This document shows positions 1,077-16,645 of a stretch of 55,942 nt of DNA, in pieces (the stretch's first letter is position 1; every line of letters starts with the position of its first letter). The notes beneath the pieces were generated by a model that did no database searches, was not told where the DNA came from, and saw nothing but the letters and a program-made list of their open reading frames with translations. The DNA is from an uncultured Anaerolineales bacterium (GTDB lineage: Bacteria; Chloroflexota; Anaerolineae; Anaerolineales; UBA11858). The position numbers and the translations under genes were made by a program. The stretch spans positions 19,746 through 75,687 of the forward strand of contig CAZZFZ010000001.1 in NCBI GenBank assembly GCA_964653835.1, in the 5' to 3' direction.

Positions 1077-4000
1077 ATGGGCACTCAGAAAACCGAGAAG
1101 AAAAATGGGGGCCGGCTATCCACGTTCTCTCTGGCACTGATCGTAGCGGTTTTTTCGCTGGCGTTGTTTTATGCGTTGCTGCCAGTTGCTGAAGAGCCCC
1201 GGGATCTGCTTGTGGAGGAGGAACGTGCCTATCTTGCGCTGGGGCGCCATGGGGTGCGGATACTGGATATTTCCAACATGGCTGCTCCCCAGGAGATCGG
1301 TCGCCTGGATACGCCGGGGTATGCCTATCAACTGGCGTTGCGCACGGATTCGCTAGGGCGGCAAATTCTCTTTGTTGCAGATGGATGGTGGGGAGCGCTG
1401 GCGCTGGATGTCACGGATCCTGCCAAGATCAATGTGCTATGGCGCAGCAGTGGGGTGCGCCGCGCCCGCGGTATCGTCCTGGCTGGCGATGATCTGTTCG
1501 TCAGCGACCCTGGGGGCAAGCTGCATCGCTTTAAGGTTGATTCGCTTCCTGCTCCGCCAGAAGAGGTGTTGCACTGGGTTTGGGATAAAGCAACGGGGAT
1601 TGTTCGCGGCCTGGGGCCGCTGTGGGTGGATGGGAATCGCTTGTACAGTGTGCGAAATGGAAATCAATGGGTGTTTTTCGATATCTCCAACCGAGATCTA
1701 CCTCAGCCGGCAGCGGCGATCACCGCGCCCGCCGAGATCCTCGACCTGGCGATCGCTGACGGCAGGGTTTACCTGGCTTTGGGTACTTTGGGGGTGACCT
1801 GGGTGGCTCCGGCCAAGGGCGTTGAAACTTTTGGTGTCGAACCTGTGCCCATTGGCGATGTCCACAGCCTGGATGTGAAAGGTGGCTATCTGTACGCCGG
1901 CGTCAAGGGGCGCGGGGTAGTCGTGCATGATCTCAGCGGCGGCACCGCCTGGTCGCTGGTGGCAAGCGCGGAGACGCGGCAAACTCCAGGTCAGCTGGTA
2001 TACGATCGAGGGCGGATTATCCTGGCCGATGGGCGTCGGACGGTTTCCCTCCTGGGTATAACCGATTCGCTGAAGCAGACCGATTTGCAGCGCGTCTTGA
2101 GCGGTTACGTCGCCGATGTAGCCGTCCATCCTGGAGGCTATATCTATCTGGCCAATTGCGAGCAGGGCGTGCAGATTCTGACTCATCAGGGAGAGCGTCG
2201 AGGGGATGTGCATGATCTGCCGGGTTGCGTTCAGGCTGTCGTTGTAACACAGACGCATCTTTTCGCTGCCGTCCGCGATCGCGGGGTAAGGGTTTATAGC
2301 CTGACGGATGGACTGGAGACGCCGAAGTTGCTTAGCGAGATTGGCACGGGCGGAGCGGCGCGTGACCTCCTGGCCCAGGGCCAGTATGTCTACGTGGCTG
2401 ATGGGACGGCGGGGTTGAAGGTGGTGGATTGGGCGTTGCCGCTGAATCAGGTGATCGCCACGCTCTCTTTTGGGGAGGGGGCCGATTTGCAGCGGATTGC
2501 CCTTTCCGGTGATCGGCTTTATCTTGCCGCTGGCTCGCTGGGGTTGCAGGTTGTTTCGATTGAAAATCCAGCGCAGCCGCAATCGCTGGCTGCGGTGCAG
2601 GTTGGGGGCGAGGTTCGTTCGGTCGCTGTGCAGGCCATCACACAGGGGGATGGGGAAAACGCGGTGCATGCCTATTTGATTGGCAAGGGCAGTGACGGTC
2701 AACAGATTCTCTGGGTGGTTGACGTCAGTGATCCGGGTAAGGCGCGCGTCCTCAGTCAGGTTCGCCTCGCCGCTGAGCCGCGGGATGTCGCCGTGGACGG
2801 GCGACTGGTGTATGTGCTCGAAGCCGGGCGCGGCCTGCAGGTTTATGATGTCGCTGACCCGGCCGCTCCGCAGGATCGCTCCCCGGCCCCGCAAGAGGGA
2901 GATTTCAATCGCCTGACGGTTGCCGATCATCGCGTGTATGTCGCCCGCGCGACGCGGGGCGTTGCGGCTTATCGCGTGGTAAACCCAGAAGCACCCGAAA
3001 CCGTTTTTTCTCTGGATATGTTCGGTGTGCTGCGCGCCGGGGGCGTCCGTGACGGCTACCTGTACGCCGTGGATGGCTCCGGTGAGATGTGGGTCGCGAA
3101 TTTGCATGACCCAGGGCAGGCTTTCGTCGTCAGCCGCTACCGCACTCCCGGCGAGGCGCGCGGGCTGGATATCCGCGGCGACTACGCTTACATCGCCGAT
3201 GGCAGCCAGGGTTTGCGCATCCTGCAATTGGGGGATGGCGGCGCCTTGACGCCTGTGGGCGGGTTCGAAGCGATGGATAACGCCCGTGATGTGGTCGTCG
3301 GCGATGGGTACGCTTTTGTGGTCAATCGCGAGGCGCGCATTGAGGTCTTTGACGTGCGCAATCCGGGAAACCCTGAACCGCTTCTGGGTTTCAACACCCG
3401 GGGAACTGTCCTCGATCTGGACATACTCAACGGATATCTGTACGTCGCTGAGGGGGATCAGGGGATTGAAGTGTGGGATGTCCGTCAGCCCGGGCGCCCT
3501 CAGTATGTGGAATTTCCCCTGAGTGAGGATTGGGGGAGCGTAACCCGTCTGGAGGCCTCTCCTAGCGGAAGCGTGCTTTATGTGCTTTCTGCTCAGCAGG
3601 GGTTGCTTGCTCTGCGCGCGACCCGGCCGGGCGCGGCACGCCTGGTGGCGTGTTTTGCCTCGCAGGGAGAACCCCAGGACGTTCATCTGATCGGGCGTTA
3701 TGTGTTATTTGCGGATGGCGAGGCCGGGACGCGCGTTTTCCACCACCTGGCAAACGATGAGATTAATGAAGTCAGTGGGGGGCCAATTCCGGGATATGCT
3801 GCGAACGTATTGGGCATCAACCTGAATCCAGTTCAGGAGTTGGAGTTCCTGGTGGCTACCGTGGGGCAAAACGGGATGGTGCACCTGAAGCAGGTGAAGA
3901 ACGCGGTTTCGTTTTTCTCTGCAGGGCAATACTTCCTGCCTGGCCGCGGAGGGCTGGTCGGCCTCTTGCTTAATTCAGTGACGCTTCCCCAGGTGGAGAT

Positions 4001-5531
4001 GACAGCGGCGCAGGTGTTCCTGGGGATGCTGGTTTTCTGGCTCAGTTTGCGCCTGTTTCTAATTCTGGCCTCCGGACAGGTGCTGCCGTTGGCGGAGGGC
4101 TGGTTTAGCCGCACCGCCCTCCAGCGGTTAACCAGCTACATCTGGGGGATGCACGGGCCTGTGGTGTTCGTCCGCGATGGCAAAGGAGAACAGCGTCAGG
4201 GCGAGTTTGCGCCCACCGGTACCGGATTGGTGTTTATCGACGCGGTCAGCGCAGCGGTGTTGGAGCGGCGCGCTGGCCTGCCGGGGTTGCTAGGGCGCAT
4301 CAGGAATTTTCTTCGCCGCCGCCACCCGCGCGAGAATCTGGGCATGCGCCCGGTTGGGCCTGGGGTGAATCTGATTCGCCGTGGAGAGCGGCTGCGCGCT
4401 GTTGTGGATTTACGCCGTCAAATTCGCCTGCGGGTGGGCGTGACGGCCAAGACGGCCGATGGTATGGATGTTTCCTCGGTTGTGTTTTCTTTATTCTCCC
4501 TCGGCATGTCTGCCGACAGGCTGCTGGTTACTTATATCGGGGATGATGAAAAACCGGAGAATGTCCGCGAGGTACAGTTGCGCGAAGTCTCGCCTTCTAA
4601 AGATGATGAATTCACTCGTCAGATCGTTGCCCGGCTGGCAGACACATTTGATCCCTCCGACAAGCTTGAGGTTCACCGCTATATCGAGCGTTTTCGCAGT
4701 CGTCGGGTGGATGCCACGTGGCAGGCGCCGCCCGCGCCGCCGGATTGGCCTTTGTTCATTTATAACCCGGAGCGCGTGCGTGCGGCCGGCGTTTTGGGGC
4801 GGGCGTATAACCGGGAGAGTGAAACGTGGGAGGACTGGACGCGCATGCCGCTAGATATCGCCGTGGATATCTTTCGGGGTTTGTTGGAGCGCTATGCGTT
4901 TGACGATCTTTTTGTTCCAGACAGGCCGAATGGCACCCATTTGAGACAACTGGGCGATGATTTCCGCCAGAAGATGATCCACCAGGGGATTTTGGCTGTT
5001 CAGTTTGTCGAGCGTGCGGATGGCAAACCTATCCGTGAGGGAGATGACTGGCGTGAAGGGGCGCTTACTCGTTACCCGGTGTGGGAGTTGCCGCCAAACG
5101 GCAAGCCGCTGCGCGGGCGTGGCATTCGCATTTTGCATGCTGGTTTTGCCGGTTTGACGCCTACCCGGCCGGAGGTGATGCGAGATTACCGTTATGGATT
5201 CTGGCGCAGCTTGCAGCGTAAGCGTGTGTTGGAAACCAGCGGTGATTACCAGCGGCAGGCGTTGCGGATTATGAGTCAGGCGCGCGCCCAGGCGCAGCGT
5301 GAGATGGCAAATTCGTTGCTGCGCATCCTGCATACGCCGGGGCTCTCGAAATCCTCCCTGGCGCTGCGCGTTTTTCAGGCTTTGGAGGCCGCGGCGACCA
5401 ACCCGGCCGCGGGAAAGAAACTCTCCCGCGATGTGACCTATTTGCTTCACACCCTGGGCAATTTGTTGTTGCCCGGGCGCGATGAGCGACGCGGGGACGA
5501 CCTGACGCCGGATGACCCTCAGGCGGAGTGA
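1077..5531 (+). CDS. Giant membrane protein: N-terminal TM anchor, ~20 LVIVD-like beta-propeller blades, hydrophobic block, C-terminal SPFH/band-7-like domain
   Basis: ATG at 1077; the track ORF opens at TTG 1044. TM helix 'LSTFSLALIVAVFSLALFYALL'. Repeated blades such as 'VYVADGTAGLKVVDW', 'LYLAAGSLGLQVVSIENPAQPQ' and 'LYVAEGDQGIEVWDVRQPGRPQ' run up to about nt 3750. A hydrophobic segment spans nt ~3950-4075. The C-terminal core is 'GPGVNLIRRGERLRAVVDLRRQIRLRVGVTAKTADGMDV'. Confidence 0.85.
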   Translation: MGTQKTEKKNGGRLSTFSLALIVAVFSLALFYALLPVAEEPRDLLVEEERAYLALGRHGVRILDISNMAAPQEIGRLDTPGYAYQLALRTDSLGRQILFVADGWWGALALDVTDPAKINVLWRSSGVRRARGIVLAGDDLFVSDPGGKLHRFKVDSLPAPPEEVLHWVWDKATGIVRGLGPLWVDGNRLYSVRNGNQWVFFDISNRDLPQPAAAITAPAEILDLAIADGRVYLALGTLGVTWVAPAKGVETFGVEPVPIGDVHSLDVKGGYLYAGVKGRGVVVHDLSGGTAWSLVASAETRQTPGQLVYDRGRIILADGRRTVSLLGITDSLKQTDLQRVLSGYVADVAVHPGGYIYLANCEQGVQILTHQGERRGDVHDLPGCVQAVVVTQTHLFAAVRDRGVRVYSLTDGLETPKLLSEIGTGGAARDLLAQGQYVYVADGTAGLKVVDWALPLNQVIATLSFGEGADLQRIALSGDRLYLAAGSLGLQVVSIENPAQPQSLAAVQVGGEVRSVAVQAITQGDGENAVHAYLIGKGSDGQQILWVVDVSDPGKARVLSQVRLAAEPRDVAVDGRLVYVLEAGRGLQVYDVADPAAPQDRSPAPQEGDFNRLTVADHRVYVARATRGVAAYRVVNPEAPETVFSLDMFGVLRAGGVRDGYLYAVDGSGEMWVANLHDPGQAFVVSRYRTPGEARGLDIRGDYAYIADGSQGLRILQLGDGGALTPVGGFEAMDNARDVVVGDGYAFVVNREARIEVFDVRNPGNPEPLLGFNTRGTVLDLDILNGYLYVAEGDQGIEVWDVRQPGRPQYVEFPLSEDWGSVTRLEASPSGSVLYVLSAQQGLLALRATRPGAARLVACFASQGEPQDVHLIGRYVLFADGEAGTRVFHHLANDEINEVSGGPIPGYAANVLGINLNPVQELEFLVATVGQNGMVHLKQVKNAVSFFSAGQYFLPGRGGLVGLLLNSVTLPQVEMTAAQVFLGMLVFWLSLRLFLILASGQVLPLAEGWFSRTALQRLTSYIWGMHGPVVFVRDGKGEQRQGEFAPTGTGLVFIDAVSAAVLERRAGLPGLLGRIRNFLRRRHPRENLGMRPVGPGVNLIRRGERLRAVVDLRRQIRLRVGVTAKTADGMDVSSVVFSLFSLGMSADRLLVTYIGDDEKPENVREVQLREVSPSKDDEFTRQIVARLADTFDPSDKLEVHRYIERFRSRRVDATWQAPPAPPDWPLFIYNPERVRAAGVLGRAYNRESETWEDWTRMPLDIAVDIFRGLLERYAFDDLFVPDRPNGTHLRQLGDDFRQKMIHQGILAVQFVERADGKPIREGDDWREGALTRYPVWELPPNGKPLRGRGIRILHAGFAGLTPTRPEVMRDYRYGFWRSLQRKRVLETSGDYQRQALRIMSQARAQAQREMANSLLRILHTPGLSKSSLALRVFQALEAAATNPAAGKKLSRDVTYLLHTLGNLLLPGRDERRGDDLTPDDPQAE

Positions 5532-5537
5532 GGCACG

Positions 5538-6881
5538 ATGAGACGGATTTTCCGTGACTTTCGATCTCGAACCAATCCCTGGCTGGGCGGGCAACCGTGG
5601 GGGTGTGCGCGTTTCCTCATCCTGGGAGGGTTTGTCATCCTGCTGGGGGTGGTGGCCGGCGCGTTGAGCAGGACGATTGACGTCCCCTCGTTGCTGGTTT
5701 ACCTTCGCTCGCAACAATGGTCGATAGCTTTCGTCACGTTGTTCCAGCCGTACTCCTGGCTGGTGTTGCTGGCCTTTGGGTTGGGCATGGCAGTTTGTGC
5801 TCGCTATGTGCAGGATGTTTTCGCCATCCCTGCCCCGCGCGCTGCCTGGCACTATCTGGTTGCCCTGCTGTTCCGCGTGCGTCAGCCGCGGTTGAATGTG
5901 GAAGATGGGCGTTTCCGGGAGCTGGAGGAGGAGTTTCACCTTCTGCGTGACGTCGGCGGGCCGGGGTTCCTTGTGATTCAGCAGGGGAATCTGGTTTTGC
6001 TGGAGGGGATGGATGGGCGGCCGCGCGTGTGCGCCGCGGGGCCGAATTATGTCGCTCCGTTCGAGCGCGTGCGCGAAATCATCAGCCTGGATGACCAGAT
6101 CGTCCCGTTGTCGCCGGTTCGGGCGACCACGCGCGACGGCATCATAGTGGAAGTCCGTGAGGCGGAATTCGCTTTTCGACTGCGCACTGGCCGCGGTGAC
6201 AGCGATCTGGCCCGCCGCGAAGCGGATAGCCCCTATGTCTTCTCGTTGCAGGCCGCCCTGCGCAGTTATTACAATCGCTCTGTTGGTTCAGGTGGCGTGA
6301 CGCCCTGGCAGCAGGTGGTCGCTCGCGCGGTGACGAGCGCGATCACCGGCTATATTCAGCAGAATCGCCTCGAAGATCTCATTCCCCCGGAGGAGGCCCG
6401 CACTGTCGCCGCGGGCGAATCCCAACCCAATGCAGAATATGCGCCGCGGTTTGCCCGCGAGGTCATCACCCAGCGCCTGAATAACGACGCCACGCGCGCT
6501 CAGCTGGAAGACGTGGGCGCTGAGTTGGTTTGGGTGAATATGGGTCAATTCCGCATCGTGGATGACCGCGTCAACGCTCAGTTGATCGAAACCTGGGGCG
6601 CCCCCTGGAAGGGGCGCGCCGAGATCAACCTGGCCGCGGGCGAAGCACAGCGCTGGGCGCTCATTGAGTCCGGGCGCGCCGAAGCGCAGGCAGAGTTGCT
6701 CCAGGATATCCTCGAGATCTTCAACACCGCCGGGGCGCAAGAGGCTTCGCGGGAGGAGCTGGAAACCATGATCCTGGTGCGTACCACGCAGATCCTTGAG
6801 GCGCTTTCCCAGAGCGGGCTTCCGCCGGACGCCGAGAGTGGAAGCGAAGGAGACGACTTCGATCTGCCTCCGCCAGTATAA
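5538..6881 (+). CDS. SPFH/band-7-like membrane protein, paralogous to the C-terminal domain of the preceding gene
   Basis: 447 aa, starting 6 nt after the upstream stop. Two or three N-terminal hydrophobic helices. Core 'GPNYVAPFERVREIISLDDQIVPLSPVRATTRDGIIVEV', then 'GAELVWVNMGQFRIVDD', then an 'AAGEAQRWALIESGRAEAQAELL' coiled-coil-like tail. Acidic C-terminus. Confidence 0.8.
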   Translation: MRRIFRDFRSRTNPWLGGQPWGCARFLILGGFVILLGVVAGALSRTIDVPSLLVYLRSQQWSIAFVTLFQPYSWLVLLAFGLGMAVCARYVQDVFAIPAPRAAWHYLVALLFRVRQPRLNVEDGRFRELEEEFHLLRDVGGPGFLVIQQGNLVLLEGMDGRPRVCAAGPNYVAPFERVREIISLDDQIVPLSPVRATTRDGIIVEVREAEFAFRLRTGRGDSDLARREADSPYVFSLQAALRSYYNRSVGSGGVTPWQQVVARAVTSAITGYIQQNRLEDLIPPEEARTVAAGESQPNAEYAPRFAREVITQRLNNDATRAQLEDVGAELVWVNMGQFRIVDDRVNAQLIETWGAPWKGRAEINLAAGEAQRWALIESGRAEAQAELLQDILEIFNTAGAQEASREELETMILVRTTQILEALSQSGLPPDAESGSEGDDFDLPPPV

Positions 6882-6913: not shown

Positions 6914-7111
6914 ATGACCAACCCTGCGACACAAAAAGATTCTAATGGCGCGCGCTGCGAGGTCATCCTCTTGATGGTGGAGCAAATTGAAAAGCTGCCT
7001 CCACGGTTGCGTGCCTGTCACGTGTTGACGTGGTATTATCATCCGCGTTTGGAATATCCCTGGGATGAGTTGCGCGCTGCTTTGCTCAGGGCGCTCCTCA
7101 AGCCCAACTGA
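6914..7111 (+). CDS. Small hypothetical protein (65 aa) with a sigma-70 region-4-like 'LPPRLR' segment
   Basis: Near-consensus SD AAGGAGG (6902-6908) lies 5 nt before ATG 6914. The stop at 7111 falls before the psuG start. 'IEKLPPRLRACHVLTWYY' resembles the start of the ECF sigma region 4 helix-turn-helix, but the protein is far too short for a sigma factor. Confidence 0.45.
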   Translation: MTNPATQKDSNGARCEVILLMVEQIEKLPPRLRACHVLTWYYHPRLEYPWDELRAALLRALLKPN

Positions 7112-7133
7112 TCGAAATTCGGAGTGTAACGTA

Positions 7134-8060
7134 GTGAATTTGAAGAGTGCGTATATTCTGGGGGATGAGGTTTCCCGCGCCCGTGAGATGGGTGTCCCGC
7201 TGGTCGCTTTGGAAACCACAGTGGTCACCCACGGTTTGCCTTCCCCTCGCAACCTGGAGCTGGCTGCGGATATGGAGACCGCGGTGCGGGAAGGTGGCGC
7301 CGCGCCGGCGACCATTGCTGTGCTGGATGGGAAAATCTGCGTGGGGATGACGGCGGAGGAACTGGAGCGTCTGGTGGCGGCGCGGCCCTTGCGAAAGATC
7401 AGCCGTCGCGATTTCGCCCCTGCATTGGCCCGCAAAGAGAGCGGAGGGACGACCGTCGCCGGGACGATGATCGCGGCCCACGCCGTGGGTATTCAGGTGT
7501 TTGCCACCGGCGGCATCGGTGGGGTGCATCGCTTTCCCCCTTACGATGTCTCCGCCGATCTGCCAGAGCTGGCGCGTACCCCGTTGATCGTGGTTTGCGC
7601 TGGGGCCAAGGCGATCCTCGACCTGCCCGCCACCCTGGAGATGTTGGAGACCTGGGGGGTGCCGGTGATCGGCTACCAGACGGACGAGTTCCCGGCATTT
7701 TACTCCCAGAGCAGCGGATTGCCGGTCAGCGCCCGCGCTGATTCGCCCGCGGAGGTGGCTGAGATTGCCCGCGCCCACTGGGGGCTGGGGTTGGAGAGCG
7801 CTGTGCTGGTGGCCGTGCCGCCACAGGCCTCGGCGCTGCCCGCCGAAGAGCTGGAAGCAGCGATTCAGCAGGCGTTGCGCGAGGCCGAAGCCCAGGGGAT
7901 ACGCGGCCAGGCCAGCACGCCCTTTTTGCTGGCGCGGGTGAGTGAACTCACCGGTCAGGCCAGCCTGCACGCCAACCTGGATTTATTGTTGAACAACGCC
8001 CGCGTTGCCGCTCAGATTGCCGTTGCTTTGGGAGGGAATAAGGCAAAGACGTTTGTGTAG
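7134..8060 (+). CDS. psuG: Pseudouridine-5'-phosphate glycosidase
   Basis: 'PLVALETTVVTHGLPSPRNLE', 'ATIAVLDGKICVGM', 'TTVAGTMIAAH..GI.VFATGGIGGVHR' and 'DVSADL.EL..TP..VVCAGAKAILD' match the PsuG (IndA) family. GTG 7134 is preceded by GGAG at 7121; the track ORF start at 7065 looks like an in-frame extension. Confidence 0.9.
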   Translation: MNLKSAYILGDEVSRAREMGVPLVALETTVVTHGLPSPRNLELAADMETAVREGGAAPATIAVLDGKICVGMTAEELERLVAARPLRKISRRDFAPALARKESGGTTVAGTMIAAHAVGIQVFATGGIGGVHRFPPYDVSADLPELARTPLIVVCAGAKAILDLPATLEMLETWGVPVIGYQTDEFPAFYSQSSGLPVSARADSPAEVAEIARAHWGLGLESAVLVAVPPQASALPAEELEAAIQQALREAEAQGIRGQASTPFLLARVSELTGQASLHANLDLLLNNARVAAQIAVALGGNKAKTFV

Positions 8061-8089
8061 CACCTGGGCATACAAAAGTAGAGGCACCT

Positions 8090-8295
8090 GAGTTCGGGAT
8101 AAGGCAAAACGCCATAGATGCGATCAACGCCCTTCGATACGCACTTCGCCAGCGCTCAGTGCTACTCAGGACGCTGATCTCTTCACTGAATAACGCATCC
8201 TGAGTAGCGCCCCGGGCTGAGTAGCAAAGCGTACCGAAGCCCAAGGCGCGTATCGAAGGGTGCGTTATTCATCAGGTAACACTTATCCCGAATTC
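8090..8295. repeat. Nested-hairpin MITE/REP-like intergenic repeat, full-length copy 1
   Basis: Outer 14-nt inverted repeat GAGTTCGGGATAAG (8090-8103) / CTTATCCCGAATTC (8282-8295). Inner perfect 13-bp pair CCCTTCGATACGC (8130-8142) / GCGTATCGAAGGG (8248-8260). Further CTACTCAGG / CCTGAGTAG pairing. Core 8123-8268 recurs at 54443-54590 and includes an identical 30-mer. Confidence 0.65.
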
Positions 8296-8300
8296 ACGTT

Positions 8301-8337
8301 AAAGGCGGCTGTCACCTGCGAAGTGGCAGCCGCCTTT
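8301..8337. terminator. Bidirectional intrinsic terminator between convergent psuG and the PT-rich gene
   Basis: AAAGGCGGCTGTCAC (8301-8315) pairs with GTGGCAGCCGCCTTT (8323-8337), 14 of 15 bp. An A-run and a T-run flank the stem on both strands. Confidence 0.6.
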
Positions 8338-8361
8338 GTGCCTGGCGTTTTAAAAGCTCAC

Positions 8362-9438
8362 CTACGGCGTGGCCGTGGGGTGGCGTGTGATGGTGGGGGT
8401 AGGCGTGGTTGGCGTTGCCGTTGGCCAGCGTGTGATGGTGGGGGAGAGCGTCGCCGTGGGGGTGATCGGGGTTGGCGTCAGCGTCTGGCTTGGCGTTAGA
8501 GTCAGCGAGGGGGTGTAGGTTGGCGACGACGTGGCCGTGGGGATGGTTGGCGTGATGGTTGGCGTGGGAGTGCGCGTTAGTGTCGGCCAGGGGGTGATGG
8601 TGGGGGTGATGGTCGGCGTATAGGTTGGCGTGTAGGTGCTGGTGGGCGTGGGCGTTGAGGTTGGGGGTTCGCCCTCGACGATGAAACTGCCGCCGACGAT
8701 CCAGTTCAGGCCGATGAAAATCTCCACCCGGTATTCCCCTGGGCGCCAGTCTTCGGCGTCCGGTTGCCAGTCGGAGAATCCAGCCCCTCCACTGCCCCAA
8801 TGCCAGGGACTGGTTTCAAAGTGAACCAGATTGCCCTCGTAATACCATAGCGCCGTCCACTGGGTATCGTCGGTCATGCCGTCGTAGGTGAAGTAGGCGT
8901 ACATGTGGCCGACCGGATTGGTAAAAACTTCGGCGGGTTTGATTGGGCGGTAGAGCGAATCCACGCCCTCGTTGGTGAATTGCAGGCGGCTGAAGACCAC
9001 ATCGGCAGGGGGGGTGAGGTTGCCCTCGAATTGCGCCTCGATGGCCAGGGGGATGTGGGGCGTAGGTGTGATCGTCGGTGTGTTGGAGACCTCTGGCGTG
9101 GGCGTGATGGTCGGCGAATGGGTGATCGTGGGGGTCTGCGAGATTGTGGGGGTCAGGCTGACGGTGGCGGTGAGCGTGGGGGTGACAGAGGGAGGGTAGA
9201 AACTGTAGGCCACCGGTTCGGCGTAACCGTTGACTGCATAGGCCAGACCTCCCAATACCACGAAGAGGAAAACGCGCCGCCAGCCCCGCACCATCCCCTC
9301 GCGGCGCATGCGGAAATAAGGGATCCGGCGCGCGCGGGAGATCGCCCGAATCCCGCTCCACAGGCTGAGCAGGGCCAGCAGGCTGAGAACGATGGTCGCG
9401 GTGAGTACGCCGGTGCGGACGTCCAGATTTACAGGCAT
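8362..9438 (-). CDS. Membrane protein with two Pro/Thr-rich low-complexity linkers flanking a globular domain
   Basis: 358 aa. Two N-terminal hydrophobic helices. 'TPTLTATVSLTPTISQTPTITHSPTITPTPEVSNTPTITPTP', then a ~150-aa Trp/Tyr-rich domain, then a ~110-aa C-terminal TPT/ITP tract. Confidence 0.8.
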   Translation of the reverse strand: MPVNLDVRTGVLTATIVLSLLALLSLWSGIRAISRARRIPYFRMRREGMVRGWRRVFLFVVLGGLAYAVNGYAEPVAYSFYPPSVTPTLTATVSLTPTISQTPTITHSPTITPTPEVSNTPTITPTPHIPLAIEAQFEGNLTPPADVVFSRLQFTNEGVDSLYRPIKPAEVFTNPVGHMYAYFTYDGMTDDTQWTALWYYEGNLVHFETSPWHWGSGGAGFSDWQPDAEDWRPGEYRVEIFIGLNWIVGGSFIVEGEPPTSTPTPTSTYTPTYTPTITPTITPWPTLTRTPTPTITPTIPTATSSPTYTPSLTLTPSQTLTPTPITPTATLSPTITRWPTATPTTPTPTITRHPTATP

Positions 9439-9455
9439 GAAGGTTAGCCTTGTGG

Positions 9456-10226
9456 TCAGGCGCGTTCTTCGGCGATGACCGGGTTGACCAGCTCGCCGAT
9501 TCCTTCGATGTGAACGCGCACTTCATCCCCGGGGTTGAGCGGGCTGACGCCGGCAGGCGTGCCGGTCAGGATCAGGTCGCCGGGTTCCAGGGTCATCACG
9601 GAAGAGATAAAAGCGATCAATTGCGGGATGGAGAAGACCATATCGCGGGTGGAGGCCATCTGGCGCATCTCGCCGTTGACGTGGCAGGTGACCAGTACAT
9701 CGGTTGGGTCGATGGCGGTTTCAATCCACGGCCCCAGCGGGCAGAAGGTATCGAAGCCTTTGCCGCGCGTCCACTGGCCGTCGCTCATTTGCAGGTCGCG
9801 TGCGGTGACATCGTTGGCGGCGGTGTAGCCCAGGATGTGGTTTTTGGCCTCTTCAGGGGCGATCCAGCGGCCGCGCTTGCTGATGACTACGGCCAGCTCG
9901 GCCTCGTGCTCCACCTGCTTGGATTGTGGCGGCAGCACGATGTCCTCGCCCGGCGCGATCACCGCCGAGGGGGGTTTGAGGAAGATCAGGGGGACCTTCG
10001 GCACCTCGGCCTGATGTTCGGCGGCGTGGGCGGCGTAGTTGCGGCCCACGCAGATGATTTTGCTTGGCTGCACCGGCGCGAGAAGACGAATCTCACTGAG
10101 AGGAAAGCGCAGTTCTCCTCGCTGATAAGCCCCGAAAATGTCGCCGTCAATCGGCCCGGCCTGATCTTCGAGCACCCAGCCGTAAGCGGCTTCGCCGTTG
10201 GAGGTTTGGTAACGAATGATGCGCAT
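9456..10226 (-). CDS. Fumarylacetoacetate hydrolase (FAH) family protein
   Basis: 'KIICVGRNYAAHAAE', 'PLIFLKP', 'EAELAVVI', 'GYT..NDVTARDLQ', 'KGFDTFCPLGPW', 'MVF....LIAFIS..MTL.PGDLILTGTP.GV'. Start chosen at 'MRIIRY' (ATG 10226); the track ORF extends to 10268. Confidence 0.9.
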   Translation of the reverse strand: MRIIRYQTSNGEAAYGWVLEDQAGPIDGDIFGAYQRGELRFPLSEIRLLAPVQPSKIICVGRNYAAHAAEHQAEVPKVPLIFLKPPSAVIAPGEDIVLPPQSKQVEHEAELAVVISKRGRWIAPEEAKNHILGYTAANDVTARDLQMSDGQWTRGKGFDTFCPLGPWIETAIDPTDVLVTCHVNGEMRQMASTRDMVFSIPQLIAFISSVMTLEPGDLILTGTPAGVSPLNPGDEVRVHIEGIGELVNPVIAEERA

Positions 10227-10331
10227 GGGTTTTGTACCTTTTTGGTGAATGCGTGTAAAGTCTATCACAAGATCGAAGAAGGGGGCAGATGTTCTCCGGA
10301 ATCTCTTCCGGTGCGTGGGCGCGGCGAGGCG

Positions 10332-11210
10332 TTAGGGGGCGAGCGGGAGGGTGACCAGCATGCCGGTCAGCGCGTCCAGGCCCGAGGAGTTTCCCCAGCC
10401 GAGGAGGTCATCCAGCGTCTTTTCTGTGGCGGTGCGTGTGCCCATCAAGGCGTCCAGCGCGTGGATCAGACGTTCGTCCGCCAGCCCGTCGCCGGCGCAG
10501 GCGATCAGCCCGGCGCTGATCGCCGTGGAGCGCGCCTGGATCATCTGGATTAGCTCTTCTTGGAGATTCTCCAGATCGCCTCTCAGGCCCAGGACATTGC
10601 CCCAGCGGTGGAGGGCGAGCATCAGCCCGAGGAGGAAATCGTCGCCCGATGGGGTGAGGCCCCCGCCGTAGCCGATTAACGGTACGGCCAGGGCAGGGAT
10701 TTGCTGCCAGCGTGCCTCGTGGAGGGCGGCGCGAATCGCCAGTACGGCTTCTTCCCGCGGATGCTGGCCTTTAGCCTGGCGTGAAAGTAAGGCGGGGATG
10801 ATGGGGGCAAACCCTCTCTCTGGTTTGCGGTGGTATGCCTGGATGGCAAAGCCAGGCCGAGGGGAGGGATGCGCCGCGAGAGGCGGTTCGGGGCACCAGA
10901 CCTGCGCCTGCCGCAGGTCAATTTGCAGCTTGACCTGTGAGAACAGGAGCCCCTCGGGTGCGCGTTCCCCTGCGGTTTCTGGAGTCAGGCGTGCGAGTTT
11001 GGGGGCGTCCTGGTGATCCAGGTTAAGCGTCAGCGGGCCGCGAAAACGTTCTGTCGAGAGGAAGACGATCTTCCGATTGGAGCATTGCAGGAACGCGCCG
11101 CGCGAAGTCGTCCCCACAACTTGAAGTGAGCGAGTCTGGTGCAGAATCTGCTGCGCTGCTGATCCGATGGAAGTGCACTGGAGTGAAGCGGTGGAGCTCG
11201 TTGGATTCAT
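10332..11210 (-). CDS. DUF2877 (E. coli YlbF-like) protein
   Basis: 292 aa. The motif 'LIGYGGGLTPSGDDFLLGLMLAL' and the overall size fit what I recall of DUF2877. It lies next to the FdrA and DUF1116 genes, its usual partners. Confidence 0.7.
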   Translation of the reverse strand: MNPTSSTASLQCTSIGSAAQQILHQTRSLQVVGTTSRGAFLQCSNRKIVFLSTERFRGPLTLNLDHQDAPKLARLTPETAGERAPEGLLFSQVKLQIDLRQAQVWCPEPPLAAHPSPRPGFAIQAYHRKPERGFAPIIPALLSRQAKGQHPREEAVLAIRAALHEARWQQIPALAVPLIGYGGGLTPSGDDFLLGLMLALHRWGNVLGLRGDLENLQEELIQMIQARSTAISAGLIACAGDGLADERLIHALDALMGTRTATEKTLDDLLGWGNSSGLDALTGMLVTLPLAP

Positions 11211-11221
11211 CCGTTCAGGTC

Positions 11222-11249
11222 TTGTGTAATTTTATGTGTGGATTATAAT
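11222..11249 (+). promoter_or_regulatory. Candidate sigma-A promoter in the divergent intergenic region
   Basis: TTGTGT (11222-11227), 16-nt spacer, TATAAT (11244-11249). A second TATAAT lies at 11268-11273. This would give a leader of about 130 nt to the CoA-transferase gene. Confidence 0.35.
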
Positions 11250-11385
11250 GGGGCGTGTGCATTGATGTATAATAACACCCCGAGGCGAAGCCTGACAGTC
11301 TGAGAACAGGCGGCGCCTCCCCCTAATTGACAATTGAGATGATGAGTCCCGTAAGCCGGATACTAGCGTTGGTGGAGGCGCGTTG

Positions 11386-12594
11386 ATGCAGGCATTGAGC
11401 GACATCCGGGTATTGGATCTGACCCGCGCCCTGGCGGGCCCGTTTTGTACGATGATGTTGGGGGATTTGGGCGCAGATGTGATCAAGGTGGAGCGCCCTG
11501 GCAAGGGGGACGAAAGTCGCGGCTGGGGGCCGCCGTTTGTGGGGGAATCTTATGAAGGCTATCCGGGCGAATCGGCGTATTTTCTGGCTATCAATCGCAA
11601 CAAGCGCAGTCTGACCGTAAACTTGAAATCTGCTGAAGGGCAGGAGATCATCCGCCGCCTGGTCAAAGAGGTGGATGTTTTTGTTGAGAACTTCCGCACC
11701 GGCGTGCTGGACGCCATGGGGCTGGGGTATGAGGACTTGCGCGCCGTCAACCCGCGCCTGGTGTATTGCTCGATCAGCGGCTATGGACGCACCGGCCCCT
11801 ATGCCAATCGCCCAGGGTATGACGCCATCTTGCAGGCCGAGGGCGGGCTGATGAGCATCACCGGCCCGGTGGAAGGGCCGCCTTCACGCGTGGGGATTCC
11901 CATCATTGATATCACCACAGGGATGTTCGCCGCCAGCGCCATTCTCGCCGCGCTGCGAGCGCGCGATCAGAGCGGCGAGGGGCAGCTTGTGGATATCTCG
12001 CTACTGGATACCAGTGTGGCGTTGCTGTCGAACGTGGCTTCGAATTACCTGGTGGGGGGGATTGAGCCGCCGCGGTTAGGCAACGCTCATCCCAATATCG
12101 CGCCCTATGGCGCCTTTCGGGCGCAGGATCGCTGGTTTGTGCTAGGCGCGGCCAATGAGCGGCAATGGGGGTTGTTGTGTGACGTACTTGGGCAGCCTGA
12201 GTTGAAGGATGACCCTCGCTTTGCCACAAATGGCGACCGCCTGGCCAACCGGGAGGCTCTGCACGATACGCTGAATCAGTTGTTTGCCACCCGCCCGGCG
12301 GAGGACTGGCTGGCGCAGCTGCGCCAGGGAGGTTTGCCATGCGGGCCGATCAACGCCATCCCGGATGTGTTTGCTCATCCACAGGCGGCAGCGCGCGACT
12401 TCGCTTTATCTGTTGAGCACCCCTCGGCTGGCGAGGTGAAGGTGGCGGGGTTCCCCTACAAGCTCTCCGAGACGCCAGCGACGATCCGACGCCCGCCGCC
12501 CAGGCTTGGCGAGCACACGGCCGAGGTGTTGGAGCAAATACTGGGCGTTGACTCTCAGAAACTGACACACTATCGCCAGCACGGCGTGGTGTGA
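11386..12594 (+). CDS. Family III CoA-transferase (CaiB/BaiF/Frc type)
   Basis: 'IRVLDLTRALAGPFCTMMLGDLGADVIKVERP..GD..R', 'N.NKRS...LK...G', 'DV.VENFR.GV...LG' and 'SISGYG..GP' are hallmark strings. GGAGG lies 8 nt before ATG 11386. Confidence 0.9.
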   Translation: MQALSDIRVLDLTRALAGPFCTMMLGDLGADVIKVERPGKGDESRGWGPPFVGESYEGYPGESAYFLAINRNKRSLTVNLKSAEGQEIIRRLVKEVDVFVENFRTGVLDAMGLGYEDLRAVNPRLVYCSISGYGRTGPYANRPGYDAILQAEGGLMSITGPVEGPPSRVGIPIIDITTGMFAASAILAALRARDQSGEGQLVDISLLDTSVALLSNVASNYLVGGIEPPRLGNAHPNIAPYGAFRAQDRWFVLGAANERQWGLLCDVLGQPELKDDPRFATNGDRLANREALHDTLNQLFATRPAEDWLAQLRQGGLPCGPINAIPDVFAHPQAAARDFALSVEHPSAGEVKVAGFPYKLSETPATIRRPPPRLGEHTAEVLEQILGVDSQKLTHYRQHGVV

Positions 12595-12628
12595 GCGCAT
12601 AAATCCATTCGTAAAAAAAGGAGCAGGC

Positions 12629-14350
12629 ATGGCTAAAATTGCTGTGGAGATTCGTTCGGGGGCGTATTACGATTCCGCTTTTTTGATGCAGTTGCAGGGA
12701 TTCCTGGCCGATCAGCCCGGGGTGTTGGACGTCGGCGTGGTGATGGGCACAGATGCGAACAAGGACGTGCTCGCTCAAAGCGGGTTGCTGGTGCACGAGG
12801 CGCAGGACGCCCTGGCGGACGACCTGGTGATCGTCATTAAGGGAGAGACGGAGGAAGCCGCTCAACTCGCCCTCAGTAAGGTGGATGAGTTAATCGCCTC
12901 GCGACGCAGCCGCGGCGGCGATGAAGATTACTTGCCCAAGACGGTTGCCTCGGCTGCAGCGATGCTCCCTGAAGCGCAGTGGGTGCTGGTTTCGGTGGCC
13001 GGGCGTTACGCCGCCGGCGTGGCGCGCCAGGCGTTGGCGCAGAATAAGCACGTTTTCCTTTATAGTGATAACGTCTCCGTGGAGGACGAGGTCGCCTTGA
13101 AACAGGAAGCCGCCAGCAAGGGGTTGCTGGTGATGGGGCCAGACTGCGGCACGGCGATCATTAACGGCATCGGTTTGGGGTTTGCCAACAAGGTGCGCGC
13201 CGGTTCTATTGGCATGGTGGCGGCTTCCGGGACCGGTTTGCAGCAGGTCTCGGTGCGTATCCATCAAATGGGCGGTGGGCTGACCCACGCCATCGGCACC
13301 GGCGGACGGGACGTCAAGGATGCTGTGGGGGCGATCACCGTGCGCCAGGGGTTGGATTTGCTCAGCCGAGACCCGGACACGAAAGTGATTGTGCTGGTCT
13401 CCAAGCCGCCTTCTAAGAAAGTCGCCGATGACCTGGTGCAGGCGGCGCGCAGGGCGGGCAAGCCGGTGGTGATTGACTTTATCGGCTATGCCACGGCGCT
13501 GCGTCAGGTGGAGAATATTTACTTCGCCACCACCTTTGACGAGGCTGCCCAGCTGGCGGTGGAACTATCTCAGGTAGATGCCGATTGGGGCGCGTCAGAT
13601 GTGTCGAAGTTTGCCCCGGAGCAAAAATACCTGCGTGGGCTGTTCTCGGGCGGCACACTGGCCTATGAGAGCCTGCTGATCCTGCATAATTATTTCCCCG
13701 GTGTGTATTCCAACATCCCCTTGAGTGAAGAGTATCGTCTGAAGGACTCGCTCGTCAGCCAGGAGCACACCCTGATTGACCTGGGCGAGGACGAGTTTAC
13801 CGTGGGGCGATTACACCCGATGATGGACAACGACCTGCGGGTGCGCCGCATCGCCAAAGAGGCCGCTGACCCTGAGACCGCGGTGATCCTGCTGGATGTG
13901 GTGCTGGGTTACGGCGCGCATGCAGACCCGGCCAGCGAACTGGCCCCGGCGATCGCCGCGGCCATCCAGACCGCCAAAGAAGCGGGGCGCCATCTGGAGG
14001 TTGTCGCCGTGGTTTCCGGTACGGATGAAGATCCGCAGGACATGGCTGCTCAAATTGAGGCGCTGGAGCAGGCTGGCGCGCGCGTTGAGACCAGCAACGA
14101 TCAGGCGGCCAATTATGTTGGACGATTGTTGAAGGCGTTGGAAGAGCGCGATGTCACGTCGGAAGAGTCCGCATCTGGCGTCGATCTGGCGACTCTCAAG
14201 CAACCGCTGGCGGCGATCAACGTCGGCCTCGAATCGTTCACTGAGAGCCTTGAGGCGCAGGGCGCACGAGTGGTTCATGTAGATTGGCGACCTCCGGCGC
14301 GCGGCAATGAAAAACTGGCGGGGATCCTGGAGCGCATGCGGAGCAAGTAA
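12629..14350 (+). CDS. fdrA: FdrA-like protein (succinyl-CoA-synthetase-like fold)
   Basis: 'GLLVMGPDCGTAIINGIGLGFANKV', 'GMVAASGTGLQQV', 'THAIGTGGRDV' and 'VLVSKPPS' parallel my recollection of E. coli FdrA. Good SD (AAGGAG) is present. Confidence 0.88.
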   Translation: MAKIAVEIRSGAYYDSAFLMQLQGFLADQPGVLDVGVVMGTDANKDVLAQSGLLVHEAQDALADDLVIVIKGETEEAAQLALSKVDELIASRRSRGGDEDYLPKTVASAAAMLPEAQWVLVSVAGRYAAGVARQALAQNKHVFLYSDNVSVEDEVALKQEAASKGLLVMGPDCGTAIINGIGLGFANKVRAGSIGMVAASGTGLQQVSVRIHQMGGGLTHAIGTGGRDVKDAVGAITVRQGLDLLSRDPDTKVIVLVSKPPSKKVADDLVQAARRAGKPVVIDFIGYATALRQVENIYFATTFDEAAQLAVELSQVDADWGASDVSKFAPEQKYLRGLFSGGTLAYESLLILHNYFPGVYSNIPLSEEYRLKDSLVSQEHTLIDLGEDEFTVGRLHPMMDNDLRVRRIAKEAADPETAVILLDVVLGYGAHADPASELAPAIAAAIQTAKEAGRHLEVVAVVSGTDEDPQDMAAQIEALEQAGARVETSNDQAANYVGRLLKALEERDVTSEESASGVDLATLKQPLAAINVGLESFTESLEAQGARVVHVDWRPPARGNEKLAGILERMRSK

Positions 14351-14374
14351 CACACAAAGTACGCGGAGGCGAAG

Positions 14375-15268
14375 ATGAAAGAATTTATTGGTGCATGTGT
14401 TCAAATTGCCATCACGCCGAACGATGTGAAAGCCAACGTGGAAAAGGGCGTTGCTTGGCTGGAGAAGGCCGCGCGCGAATACGAGGCCGAGCTGATCGCA
14501 TTCCCTGAGACGGTGACCACTGGCTATGACACCGGTTTGACCGCTGAAGGGTTATGGGATCTGGTGGATGAAGCCGGTGGCGAGATCAGCCGGGAGATCC
14601 AGAAAGCTGCTAAGTCCCTGGGGGTTCATGTGATCTGGCCTTCTTATCGCCGTGGCCCAAACCGCGGGGAGGTGTACAACTCCTCCATTTTGATCGGCCC
14701 GGACGGGGAGATCATCGGCATTTATGATAAGACACACCCCGCGCCATGGGAGCGCGTTCAGGGCGGCGGCTGGGCGACCATGGGGACCCGCGCCGACGTC
14801 TTTGAGACCGCGCTGGGGAATATCGGCATGATTATCTGTTACGATGGCGATTTCCCTGAACTTTCGCGCTTGCTGGCGATCCGGGGCGCGGAGGTGATTG
14901 TGCGTTCGGCAGCGCTGCAACGCAGTTACGATATCTGGTACATCACCAATTGCGCCCGCGCCTACGATAATCACGTCTACCTGATGGGGAGCAACCTGGT
15001 GGGGCCAGACGCAGCCGGGAATTATGGTTTTGGACACAGCATGATCGTCAACCCGATTGCCTGGCGGCTGGCGCAGGCGCGCGGCACGGAGGAGATCATC
15101 GCCGCCCGTCTCGACCCCGACCCGATGCGCTATATCACTTATGGCAGCAAAAGCCCGCAGACCTTCGATCATCTTGAAGATCGTAACCTGGAATTGTACG
15201 CAGAGATTCTCAAGGAGGCGCGCGCCCGCTTTGAACCGGGTAAACGTTTTCCTCAAGATAAAGCCTGA
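14375..15268 (+). CDS. Carbon-nitrogen hydrolase (nitrilase superfamily amidase)
   Basis: The Glu-Lys-Cys triad contexts are visible: 'LIAFPET', 'YDKTHP', 'MIICYDGDFPE'. 297 aa. Confidence 0.9.
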   Translation: MKEFIGACVQIAITPNDVKANVEKGVAWLEKAAREYEAELIAFPETVTTGYDTGLTAEGLWDLVDEAGGEISREIQKAAKSLGVHVIWPSYRRGPNRGEVYNSSILIGPDGEIIGIYDKTHPAPWERVQGGGWATMGTRADVFETALGNIGMIICYDGDFPELSRLLAIRGAEVIVRSAALQRSYDIWYITNCARAYDNHVYLMGSNLVGPDAAGNYGFGHSMIVNPIAWRLAQARGTEEIIAARLDPDPMRYITYGSKSPQTFDHLEDRNLELYAEILKEARARFEPGKRFPQDKA

Positions 15269-15294
15269 TGAATAAATAGAGAGGAAGGTTCCCG

Positions 15295-16536
15295 ATGGAT
15301 ATTGAAAAAGCCAATGCTGAAGCTGTAGGTCGCATGATGGAGGCGCGTCCTACGGTGGTGGGGATGGCGAAAGCCATTGATGTTGTCCCCGGGATGCGGG
15401 AAGACTTGCTGATGCACGCCGGCCCGCCGATCACCTGGGAGCGAGCTTCTGGCCCGATGAAGGGGGCGATTACCGGGGCGTTGATTTTTGAGGGCAAAGC
15501 CAAAAACATGGAAGAGGCCCAAAAGCTGGTCGAATCCGGCGAGATCAAGCTGGAGCCTTGCCATCACCATCAATCGGTGGGGCCGATGGCCGGAGTGACC
15601 TCTCCCCATATGTCGGTCTATATCCTCGAAAACAAAACGCATGGGAATTACACCTACTCCAACCTCAACGAGGGATATGGCAAGGTGCTGCGCTACGGGG
15701 CGTACAGCGAGGAAGTGATCGAAAAGCTGACGTGGATGGAAGAGGTCATGGCCCCTGTGCTGGGCAAAGCGATCGAATTGAGCGGTGGGATTGATATCCG
15801 ATCGCTGCTGGCTGAGGCTCTCCACATGGGTGACGAGGGGCACAACCGCAACAAGGCGGGTTCGGTGCTCTTCACCAAGGCGCTGGCACCTTATATCGTC
15901 AAGGCCACCGATGATCGCGAGGTCGCTTCCGAGATCATCAAGTTTATGGGCGACAACGCCCTGACGGTTCTCAATCCGGTGATGGCGGCCTGCAAGTCGA
16001 TGGTGGACGTGGCGCACAACGTGGAGGGCAGCACCATCGTCAGCGTGATGGCGCGCAACGGCACCGATTTTGGTATTCGCGTTTCGGGCCTCGGCGACCG
16101 CTGGTTCACCGCGCCGGTGGCTAAGCCTAAAGGGTTGTACTTCCCCGGCTTCACCGAGGACGACTCCAGTGGCGACATCGGCGACAGCACGATCACCGAG
16201 ACGGCGGGCATCGGCGGCTTCGCCATGGCGGCGGCCCCGGCGATCGTCACCTTCGTCAGCGGCACGCCCAAGGACGCCATCAATGCCACGCTGGAGATGT
16301 ATGAGATCACTTTCACCGAGCACAAGTTCTTCACCATCCCGCAGCTCGATTTCCGCGGTACGCCCACCGGCATTGATATCCGCAAGGTGGTTGAAACCGG
16401 CATAACGCCGCGCGTCAACACCGGCATCGCCCACAAAGACCCCGGCGTTGGCCAGGTCGGCGCGGGTCTGGTGCGCCCGCCGATGGAAATGTTCGAAGAG
16501 GCGTTGGTGGCCTTCGCGGAGAAGTATGGGTTTTAG
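15295..16536 (+). CDS. DUF1116 (E. coli YlbE-like) protein
   Basis: 'LLMHAGPPITWE...GPMKGA', 'PCHHHQSVGPMAGV', 'NLNEGYGKVLRYGAY', 'FGIRVSGLGDRWFTAP', 'ITETAGIGGFAM' and 'VETGITPRVNTGIAHK' closely parallel my recollection of YlbE. Confidence 0.88.
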   Translation: MDIEKANAEAVGRMMEARPTVVGMAKAIDVVPGMREDLLMHAGPPITWERASGPMKGAITGALIFEGKAKNMEEAQKLVESGEIKLEPCHHHQSVGPMAGVTSPHMSVYILENKTHGNYTYSNLNEGYGKVLRYGAYSEEVIEKLTWMEEVMAPVLGKAIELSGGIDIRSLLAEALHMGDEGHNRNKAGSVLFTKALAPYIVKATDDREVASEIIKFMGDNALTVLNPVMAACKSMVDVAHNVEGSTIVSVMARNGTDFGIRVSGLGDRWFTAPVAKPKGLYFPGFTEDDSSGDIGDSTITETAGIGGFAMAAAPAIVTFVSGTPKDAINATLEMYEITFTEHKFFTIPQLDFRGTPTGIDIRKVVETGITPRVNTGIAHKDPGVGQVGAGLVRPPMEMFEEALVAFAEKYGF

Positions 16537-16549
16537 CTAACAGGTAACA

Positions 16550-16631
16550 AGGTAACTGGGTGATTAGGGATTAGGTGAATTCCTGCATTCCTAGTTACCT
16601 AATACCTGGTTGCCTTTTTGCCCAGTTACCT
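16550..16631 (+). promoter_or_regulatory. Two-tier inverted-repeat element built from AGGTAAC / GTTACCT units
   Basis: AGGTAACTGGG (16550-16560) pairs with CCCAGTTACCT (16621-16631), a perfect 11 bp. ATTAGGT (16570-16576) pairs with ACCTAAT (16597-16603). Extra AGGTAAC at 16542 and GTTACCT at 16594. Located in the 109-nt gap before the tandem-cyclase gene. Confidence 0.35.
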
Positions 16632-16645
16632 GACTGGAGGAAGAG

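Follow-up and report, generated by a model that had tools for sequence, protein, structure and literature searches.

A candidate SPFH gene pair of Anaerolineae in which one putative subunit carries a large, predicted external array of LVIVD propellers

SPFH (stomatin/prohibitin/flotillin/HflKC) proteins are universal organisers of membrane microdomains, and cryo-electron microscopy of HflK/C, flotillin, stomatin, prohibitin and erlin has revealed cages on one membrane face. How clients are selected and how the cages themselves are positioned is an open question in the field. Here we describe two adjacent genes, A and B, in a stretch of 55,942 nucleotides from an uncultured Anaerolineales bacterium (GenBank assembly GCA_964653835.1, contig CAZZFZ010000001.1, positions 19,746 to 75,687 of the forward strand), referred to as a whole as the window, and compare them with the closest described systems. 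HflK and HflC of Escherichia coli (SPFH3a/b) are products of adjacent paralogous SPFH genes in one operon, each with an N-terminal anchor, an SPFH core and a long coiled-coil helix (CC1); their SPFH domains are periplasmic, are held by a single transmembrane helix and cage FtsH. Stomatin and the QmcA-YbbJ system (SPFH1 plus NfeD) form cytoplasm-facing SPFH rings with an N-terminal hydrophobic anchor, as homo-oligomers with an NfeD partner. Archaeal stomatin partners with a Ser-Lys protease. The cages of flotillin1/2, prohibitin1/2 and erlin1/2 are eukaryotic, with the two paralogs alternating in one cage, and they use hairpin, acylation or single-transmembrane anchors, without any domain on the opposite membrane face. 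SPFH11a/b is a small prokaryotic SPFH subgroup, listed in Chloroflexi, in which the a and b genes always lie side by side in one operon, so that it shares with HflK/C the arrangement of adjacent paralogous SPFH genes (PMC2636767). LVIVD repeats, in turn, have been described in archaeal and bacterial cell-surface proteins (PMC2447325).

It is probable, in our judgement, that A and B form a two-gene operon of very divergent SPFH paralogs that co-assemble, with a loop of A enlarged into external propellers, and that this operon is found almost only in Anaerolineae and other Chloroflexota. As an operonic paralog pair A and B are most like HflK/C, with which they share gene arrangement and domain order and whose chains (7vhq, 9cz2, 9paw) are among the top Foldseek matches of the A and B models. 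They differ from HflK/C in that their SPFH domains are predicted to be cytoplasmic and to follow two transmembrane helices, in having no ftsH in the neighbourhood and in showing insignificant similarity to HflK, while HflK/C is without an extracytoplasmic propeller. The predicted cytoplasmic orientation is instead like that of stomatin, QmcA and flotillin, and the fold matches to stomatin and QmcA are strong (9oh9, 9z7u, 8z5g, 4fvj); however, where those proteins are homo-oligomers with NfeD, A and B are a paralog pair with two transmembrane helices and a large external insert. The locus therefore lacks the defining features of HflK/C, namely the periplasmic orientation (as far as topology is predicted) and the FtsH link, as well as the operon feature of stomatin-NfeD systems. 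No FtsH (Peptidase_M41) gene was found among the Pfam-scanned neighbours in the window and in recurrent neighbour clusters, and no NfeD among the Pfam-scanned neighbours; the conserved third gene of relatives encodes instead a TPR protein, to which an S24 peptidase domain is attached in some cases. SPFH11a/b could be compared by description only: SPFH11b is said to be without a coiled coil, whereas A and B both have one, and no propeller is mentioned. The genome set of Hinderhofer et al. 2009 reportedly predates the sequenced Anaerolineae. Like A, the LVIVD or choice-of-anchor B surface proteins have tandem LVIVD blades of ~42 residues, but they are secreted or wall-anchored, whereas the array of A sits between two transmembrane helices of an SPFH subunit. 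Full-text literature searches gave no paper on SPFH together with LVIVD or on SPFH in Anaerolineae, and none of the papers on SPFH, beta-propellers and bacteria, judged by title and abstract, describes an arrangement of the A type.

The features of the two genes are as follows, TM1 and TM2 being the first and second transmembrane helices of each protein.

1077-5531, + strand: gene A, a 1484-residue membrane protein with TM1, LVIVD propeller array, TM2 and a putative divergent SPFH domain with coiled-coil tail (open reading frame, NCBI protein identity, Pfam LVIVD, Foldseek of the C-terminal model)
1131-1187, + strand: TM1 or signal anchor of A, residues 19-37, with a K/R-rich N-terminus before it and an acidic stretch after it (Kyte-Doolittle peak 2.58)
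1200-3743, + strand: LVIVD beta-propeller array of A, residues 42-889, ~20 blades, predicted extracytoplasmic (PF08309, own repeat profile, partial TIGR04312)
4002-4085, + strand: TM2 of A, residues ~976-1003 (hydropathy; position relative to the SPFH domain as for TM2 of propeller-less homologs)
4161-5162, + strand: SPFH-like alpha/beta core of A, residues ~1029-1362, with an A-specific insert of ~100 residues (AlphaFold2 model m800060094c52, Foldseek, hhalign to the B family)
5169-5330, + strand: predicted long CC1-type helix of A, residues ~1365-1418, 54 residues, then shorter helices to residue ~1464 (DSSP on the AlphaFold2 model, helices 441-494 and 501-540)
5525-5537, + strand: A/B junction with GGAG, TGA stop and 6-nucleotide spacer (sequence; spacing in 48 pairs)
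5538-6881, + strand: gene B, a 447-residue paralog with two N-terminal transmembrane helices, putative SPFH core and coiled-coil tail (open reading frame, hhalign to the C-terminal domain of A, Band_7 at E 0.012, Foldseek)
5613-5810, + strand: membrane anchor of B, TM1 at residues 26-44 and TM2 within residues 63-91 (hydropathy; AlphaFold2 helices 22-45 and 61-94)
5889-6557, + strand: SPFH-like core of B, residues ~118-340 (Band_7 stretch 146-331, AlphaFold2 strands and helices, stomatin TM-score)
6570-6728, + strand: predicted long CC1-type helix of B, residues 345-397, 53 residues (DSSP on AlphaFold2 model m29ee0d61e38b)

Both open reading frames stand as given in the preliminary description; they run from 1044 (TTG) or 1077 (ATG) to 5531 and from 5538 to 6881, with a gap of 6 nucleotides. 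The product of A read from the ATG at 1077 is identical to protein P0011 called in an NCBI assembly, and the product of B is called on the same NCBI contig. At the junction GGAG (5525-5528) is followed directly by the TGA stop of A (5529-5531), and 6 nucleotides separate the stop from the ATG of B (5538), a layout typical for translational coupling, which is likely on this arrangement. A and B are a two-gene unit in the window, since their flanks are a PHP-domain gene on the minus strand (270-929) and a pseudouridine-5'-phosphate glycosidase gene, PsuG (Indigoidine_A, 7065-8060, E 7e-119). Scanning for promoters and terminators yielded numbers of matches that did not surpass those of shuffled sequence.

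The C-terminal domain of A and the B protein are shown by profile comparison to be paralogs. Two stretches had been aligned by eye, and BLASTP of A against B reproduces both, GPGVNLIRRGERLRAVVDLRRQI.. with AGPNYVAPFERVREIISLDDQI.. at E 0.005 and the helices QRQAL..ARAQAQ with QRWAL..GRAEAQ at E 0.10. Aligned with hhalign as five-sequence profiles, the A and B families match with high significance (probability 98.7%, E 4.3e-16, 327 aligned columns) from just past the transmembrane helix, through the core, to the C-terminal helices. Identity between A and B is ~18-20%, and the alignment places in the core of A an insert of ~100 residues that B does not have. Few close relatives came from the word-indexed homolog search, and the third search with the merged A and B profile gave 5 proteins. 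In the 765-residue A-type protein P0007 (L003:8001-10298; L numbers denote related loci), the A-specific insert is enlarged at residues ~270-470 to several repeats of an 'H.F(I/V)D.L.P.D' helix motif, and the conserved 'LDP.D..E.H' motif of this insert is present as a single copy in the A protein of the window.

The assignment of both proteins to the SPFH superfamily draws on predicted structure and on the wider family. AlphaFold2 models of residues 925-1484 of A and of B have mean predicted local distance difference test (pLDDT) values of 70.1 and 71.1, with most core blocks at 70-92; the core of A comprises strands and helices from residue 105 to 438 of the construct, with local pLDDT dips to ~45-60. 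When the two models are compared with the PDB by Foldseek, the 50 listed matches consist entirely of SPFH chains and the structurally related major vault protein, among them prohibitin (8rrh), HflK/C (7vhq, 9cz2, 9paw), stomatin (9oh9, 9z7u), erlin (9vvj), flotillin (9bq2), QmcA (8z5g) and vault. The best E-values are 9.5e-9 for B (HflK/C, stomatin) and 2.6e-5 for A (prohibitin, HflK/C, stomatin), and the Foldseek probability among the listed matches is 1.00 for all except about six and at least 0.91 for all down to E ~0.01. Core-only crystal structures without the long helices reach target-normalised TM-scores of 0.6-0.76, with maxima of 0.76 (B) and 0.70 (A), the SPFH domain of mouse stomatin (4fvj, 4fvg) scoring 0.73-0.76 against the B model. 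Both models also have the CC1/CC2 arrangement of cage-forming SPFH proteins, with a CC1-type helix of 54 (A) or 53 (B) residues after the core and shorter helices behind it, as read by DSSP at moderate model confidence. In the homologs, Pfam Band_7 matches 22 of 43 B-type proteins (best E 8.9e-7) and 9 of 42 A-type proteins (best E 9.5e-5), making it the sole recurrent Pfam family across the A and B homologs (31/85 members), and the B homologs P0002 and P0005 carry PF01145 in precomputed annotation.

Several results weigh against this reading. Band_7 (PF01145) scores only 16.1 bits on the B protein of the window (E 0.012; gathering score 23.6), and the Pfam scan gave no Band_7 match for A. Searches of PDB sequences with single proteins, 5-sequence profiles and 42-43-sequence profiles found no SPFH chain, and hhalign of the family profiles against the single E. 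coli HflK was insignificant; the short stretches that it aligned lie where the SPFH motifs are expected, without statistical weight. NCBIfam has nothing for the SPFH parts of A and B. The AlphaFold2 alignments are shallow, at 11-13 rows, because the merged homolog search gave only 5 proteins, and the coiled-coil helices have pLDDT of only 54-77. Beyond the fold, the charge bias of B is weak and some B homologs have three hydrophobic segments, and as regards the partner gene C that follows B in many relatives (see below), no TPR or S24 remnant is found between B and PsuG, nor among window open reading frames of at least 80 residues.

The sub-threshold Pfam scores, the empty profile searches of PDB sequences and the shallow alignments are what could be cited for a different reading, in which the C-terminal domains are a generic alpha/beta domain plus long helices of an unrelated membrane-protein family. 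That reading is highly unlikely, given that SPFH or vault proteins fill all 50 listed Foldseek matches, including the core-only structures in which long helices play no part, and that Band_7 is the only Pfam family recurring among the homologs, two of which were annotated with it beforehand. We conclude from the predicted folds and the Band_7 matches of homologs that A and B are very probably true but very divergent SPFH superfamily members, as the preliminary description had proposed for both.

The hydropathy profile of A has an N-terminal transmembrane helix (TM1, residues 19-37) and one long hydrophobic segment at residues ~976-1003, after which 481 residues follow. This agrees with the earlier account of an N-terminal helix and a C-terminal domain of about 480 residues; the hydrophobic block that account had placed at nucleotides ~3950-4075 is indeed present but lies slightly downstream, at ~4002-4085. 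Around TM1 of A, 4 K/R and 1 D/E stand before the helix and 2 K/R and 6 D/E in the next 18 residues after it, and 27 propeller-less A homologs average 3.9 K/R within the 15 residues before TM1. On the basis of this positive-inside charge bias, and of LVIVD being known from cell-surface proteins, A is predicted to have its N-terminus in the cytoplasm, its propellers outside and its 481-residue C-terminal domain back in the cytoplasm. Two transmembrane helices are seen by hydropathy in 27 of 32 A-type and 36 of 43 B-type homologs, and the N-terminal membrane anchor expected before an SPFH domain is present in both window proteins, as TM2 in A (976-1003) and as residues 26-44 and 63-91 in B. An in-out-in topology of B is consistent with its two long N-terminal AlphaFold2 helices; with the weak charge bias and the three-peak homologs, it is a prediction only.

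Between the two helices of A lies the propeller array. Pfam LVIVD (PF08309) matches it with 127.6 bits and E 1e-37 against a cut-off of 20.2, and 6 stretches pass individually. An iterated repeat hidden Markov model (HMM) built from A itself finds 17 units of ~40 residues over residues 42-889, and ~3 degenerate blades could fit into the uncovered residues 127-222 and 303-346, so that the original count of about 20 LVIVD blades is a fair one. The blades are probably grouped, most simply, as three 7-bladed propellers. Part of the array is also matched by TIGR04312, the NCBIfam model of the 'choice-of-anchor B' domain of surface proteins.

How this giant form arose can be read from its relatives. 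Most A proteins have ~530-630 residues, with TM1, a loop of ~26 residues and TM2, whereas the propeller-bearing forms have the same two helices with 300-1060 residues of LVIVD between them. Against the 1484 residues of A in the window, the A proteins of L007 and L008 have 1518, P0012 has 1549, P0013 1587, L037 1651 and L041 1975; the second-copy forms (A') of L001, L016 and L018, at 836-851 residues, have an LVIVD loop of ~300-430 residues, about one propeller. Propeller forms mostly cluster in a neighbour-joining tree of the SPFH part, drawn without support values. As the same TM1 and TM2 frame a short loop in the standard proteins and LVIVD repeats in the long ones, the array is an expansion, in one sub-clade, of the predicted external TM1-TM2 loop of an ancestral two-helix SPFH subunit of ~570 residues. 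The preliminary description was right about the joint architecture of propellers and SPFH-like domain; the array that it called fused is an enlarged loop rather than an end-to-end gene fusion.

The same comparison bears on a concern raised at the outset, that misassembly or a frameshift might have fused the gene of a secreted LVIVD protein with a distinct SPFH-like gene into the 1484-residue reading frame. Nothing was found in favour of this beyond the general point that contigs of metagenome-assembled genomes can be chimeric. The layout TM1-propeller-TM2-SPFH recurs in at least 8 independent assemblies (L007, L008, L037, L041, L001, L016/L018, P0012, P0013), running continuously and followed by B in L007, L008, L037, L041, P0012 and P0013 and in shorter form in L001, L016 and L018. 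The insert falls precisely where the ancestral protein has its TM1-TM2 loop, and on a separate JGI contig the end of A is again followed by B (99% identical) and PsuG. This recurrence excludes an assembly or frameshift artefact for practical purposes, and we give that explanation next to no credence.

A pattern scan with one genome per species found 44 A-B loci, nearly all labelled Anaerolineae, Anaerolineales or Chloroflexota. Two of the loci belong to cultured strains, Ornatilinea apprima P3M-1 and Levilinea saccharolytica KIBI-1, whose cassettes are of the form without propellers. With HMMs of both families, B was found directly after A on the same strand for 48 of the 50 A genes at the related loci, and the two others are at a contig end and in an over-extended gene call; the commonest A-B spacing is a 4-nucleotide overlap (48 pairs). 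Co-conservation of the two genes, which had been raised as a check on the pairing, is borne out by these counts. At E<=1e-3 an exhaustive profile search with the B family recovered 1969 cluster representatives, and 389 remained at E<=1e-30, so the family is sizeable in metagenomes though nearly unannotated. Precomputed Pfam annotation assigns the long proteins to LVIVD, to further propeller families and to uncharacterised families but not to Band_7, which makes the architecture invisible in domain databases. One A-B pair (L048, JAEZCA010000037.1) lies on a 5.2-kb contig of a metagenome-assembled genome labelled Bacillota, probably through a binning error, with horizontal transfer being possible. 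A second, more divergent A'-B' pair lies a few kb away in L001 (4838-8853), L016 (3714-7864), L018 (12087-16294) and L040 (2600-5865, minus strand); B' of L001 is seemingly split into reading frames 7470-7955 and 7933-8853.

If the two proteins do co-assemble, alternating A and B subunits would make up a single ring or cage at the cytoplasmic membrane face. Each A subunit would push a ~95 kDa propeller region (three propellers) through the membrane, forming an external crown over the enclosed membrane patch, and this crown could bind an envelope or extracellular ligand. Such a ligand would either anchor the assembly or be sensed by it, so that the enclosed microdomain would be held in place or regulated. 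In most relatives the pair would work with the TPR protein of the third gene, in some cases with its Ser-Lys S24 peptidase domain. The heteromer is proposed by analogy with the heteromeric pairs HflK/C, PHB1/2, flotillin1/2 and erlin1/2, the co-assembly of flotillin1/2 having been described (PMC11260169), and the operons of HflK/C and SPFH11a/b are cited as a further precedent (PMC2636767).

A and B could instead be SPFH paralogs that do not co-assemble but form separate homo-oligomers, the propeller protein then being a surface protein that uses its SPFH ring only as an anchor. Tandem SPFH1a.1/1a.2 duplications provide a precedent without a demonstrated heteromer (PMC2636767), and the identity of only ~18-20% and the ~100-residue core insert found in A and not in B point the same way. 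Nevertheless, the genes are strictly adjacent (48/50), overlap or lie minimally apart, and have stayed paired across deep divergence; the predicted CC1 helices match in length (54 and 53 residues); and all solved paralogous SPFH pairs among the listed Foldseek matches (HflK/C, PHB1/2, flotillin1/2, erlin1/2) are heteromers. We regard separate homo-oligomers as unlikely, although of the four rival explanations weighed here this is the only one still live.

For a co-assembling pair, the genes that follow it in relatives may indicate a partner. A third gene, C, encoding a TPR protein, stands after B in ~27 of the 44 related loci, and in four of them (L003:11750-13081, L008:10790-11989, L044:11431-12963 and L053:6374-7648) its protein has a Peptidase_S24 domain at the C-terminus (E 3.5e-17 to 3.9e-10), with the GNSM and KRF motifs of a Ser-Lys dyad visible in the L003 protein. 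This S24-bearing gene would fit the recurring pairing of SPFH proteins with proteases, and the archaeal stomatin-protease partnership may be a parallel. By analogy with HflK/C-FtsH and stomatin-STOPP, the TPR-S24 protein of relatives may be a protease client or partner of the SPFH pair. Neither the window nor L007 has gene C, and the protease link may consequently not hold at the window locus. We infer an ancestral gene order A-B-C-PsuK-PsuG from which C was lost in the window and in L007.

A PfkB pseudouridine kinase and an Indigoidine_A glycosidase follow the cassette in many lineages (L001:10273-11205, L003:13078-14993, L053:7652-9561), and the window keeps only the glycosidase of this PsuK/PsuG pair (7065-8060). 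At 331 residues its reading frame is ~20 residues longer than those of relatives, and the true start is probably downstream of 7065. In L001 (GCA_964644835.1) a TIR-domain gene (9425-10276) lies between the A'-B' pair and PsuG.

The S24 peptidase encoded by the third gene at some loci, together with the TIR-domain gene ~5.7 kb downstream of B in L001, could suggest a role of the cassette in anti-phage defence or conflict, with SPFH proteins as a membrane sensor and a protease or TIR protein as the effector. Such a role is very improbable in view of the setting, as the locus lies among syntenic housekeeping genes (PsuK/PsuG, RNase Y), not in variable islands, and is conserved vertically across many Anaerolineae genomes. 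PADLOC, moreover, gave no match for A, B or three C-type proteins, and the defence-system reading was set aside.

A more far-reaching version of the co-assembly model, which we put forward tentatively and think doubtful rather than expected, is that the cytoplasmic A/B cage, with each A displaying three external propellers, would be a two-sided machine, its external crown coupled mechanically or allosterically to the internal cage. In filamentous Anaerolineae it might rivet a microdomain of the membrane to the envelope or sheath, or it might signal to a client inside the cage, for instance the TPR-S24 peptidase of relatives, that an external ligand has bound; no earlier SPFH scaffold would then have had an extracellular receptor built in. 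If a ~95 kDa propeller region does stand on the membrane face opposite the cage, this would show that SPFH cages can be wired directly to the cell exterior, and the propellers would be a ready means of identifying the stimulus of the cage. A sizeable SPFH family mostly missed by current annotation also comes to light, with two cultured species, Levilinea saccharolytica and Ornatilinea apprima, open to experiment.

Other neighbours recur around the cassette. Directly upstream of A in L003 (5674-7919), on the same strand, are genes for a MoxR-type AAA+ ATPase and a DUF58 protein, and the DUF58 cluster with its neighbour pattern is found also in L044 and L046. At ~17-20 loci a gene for a ~900-residue protein with two AAA modules (AAA and AAA_lid_6) converges on A-B-C (for example L020:13014-15707, minus strand), and it comes with an unannotated protein of ~470 residues and a radical-SAM/Fer4_12 protein (neighbour clusters c3 and c5); this neighbourhood may reflect either plain synteny or a functional link. 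Elsewhere in the window, positions 10332-18316 hold genes for AllH-like and AllG-like proteins (oxamate carbamoyltransferase subunit), a CoA-transferase III, a CoA-ligase-type protein, a CN hydrolase and a putative cyclase, a cluster that resembles a nitrogen-compound or ureide catabolism locus.

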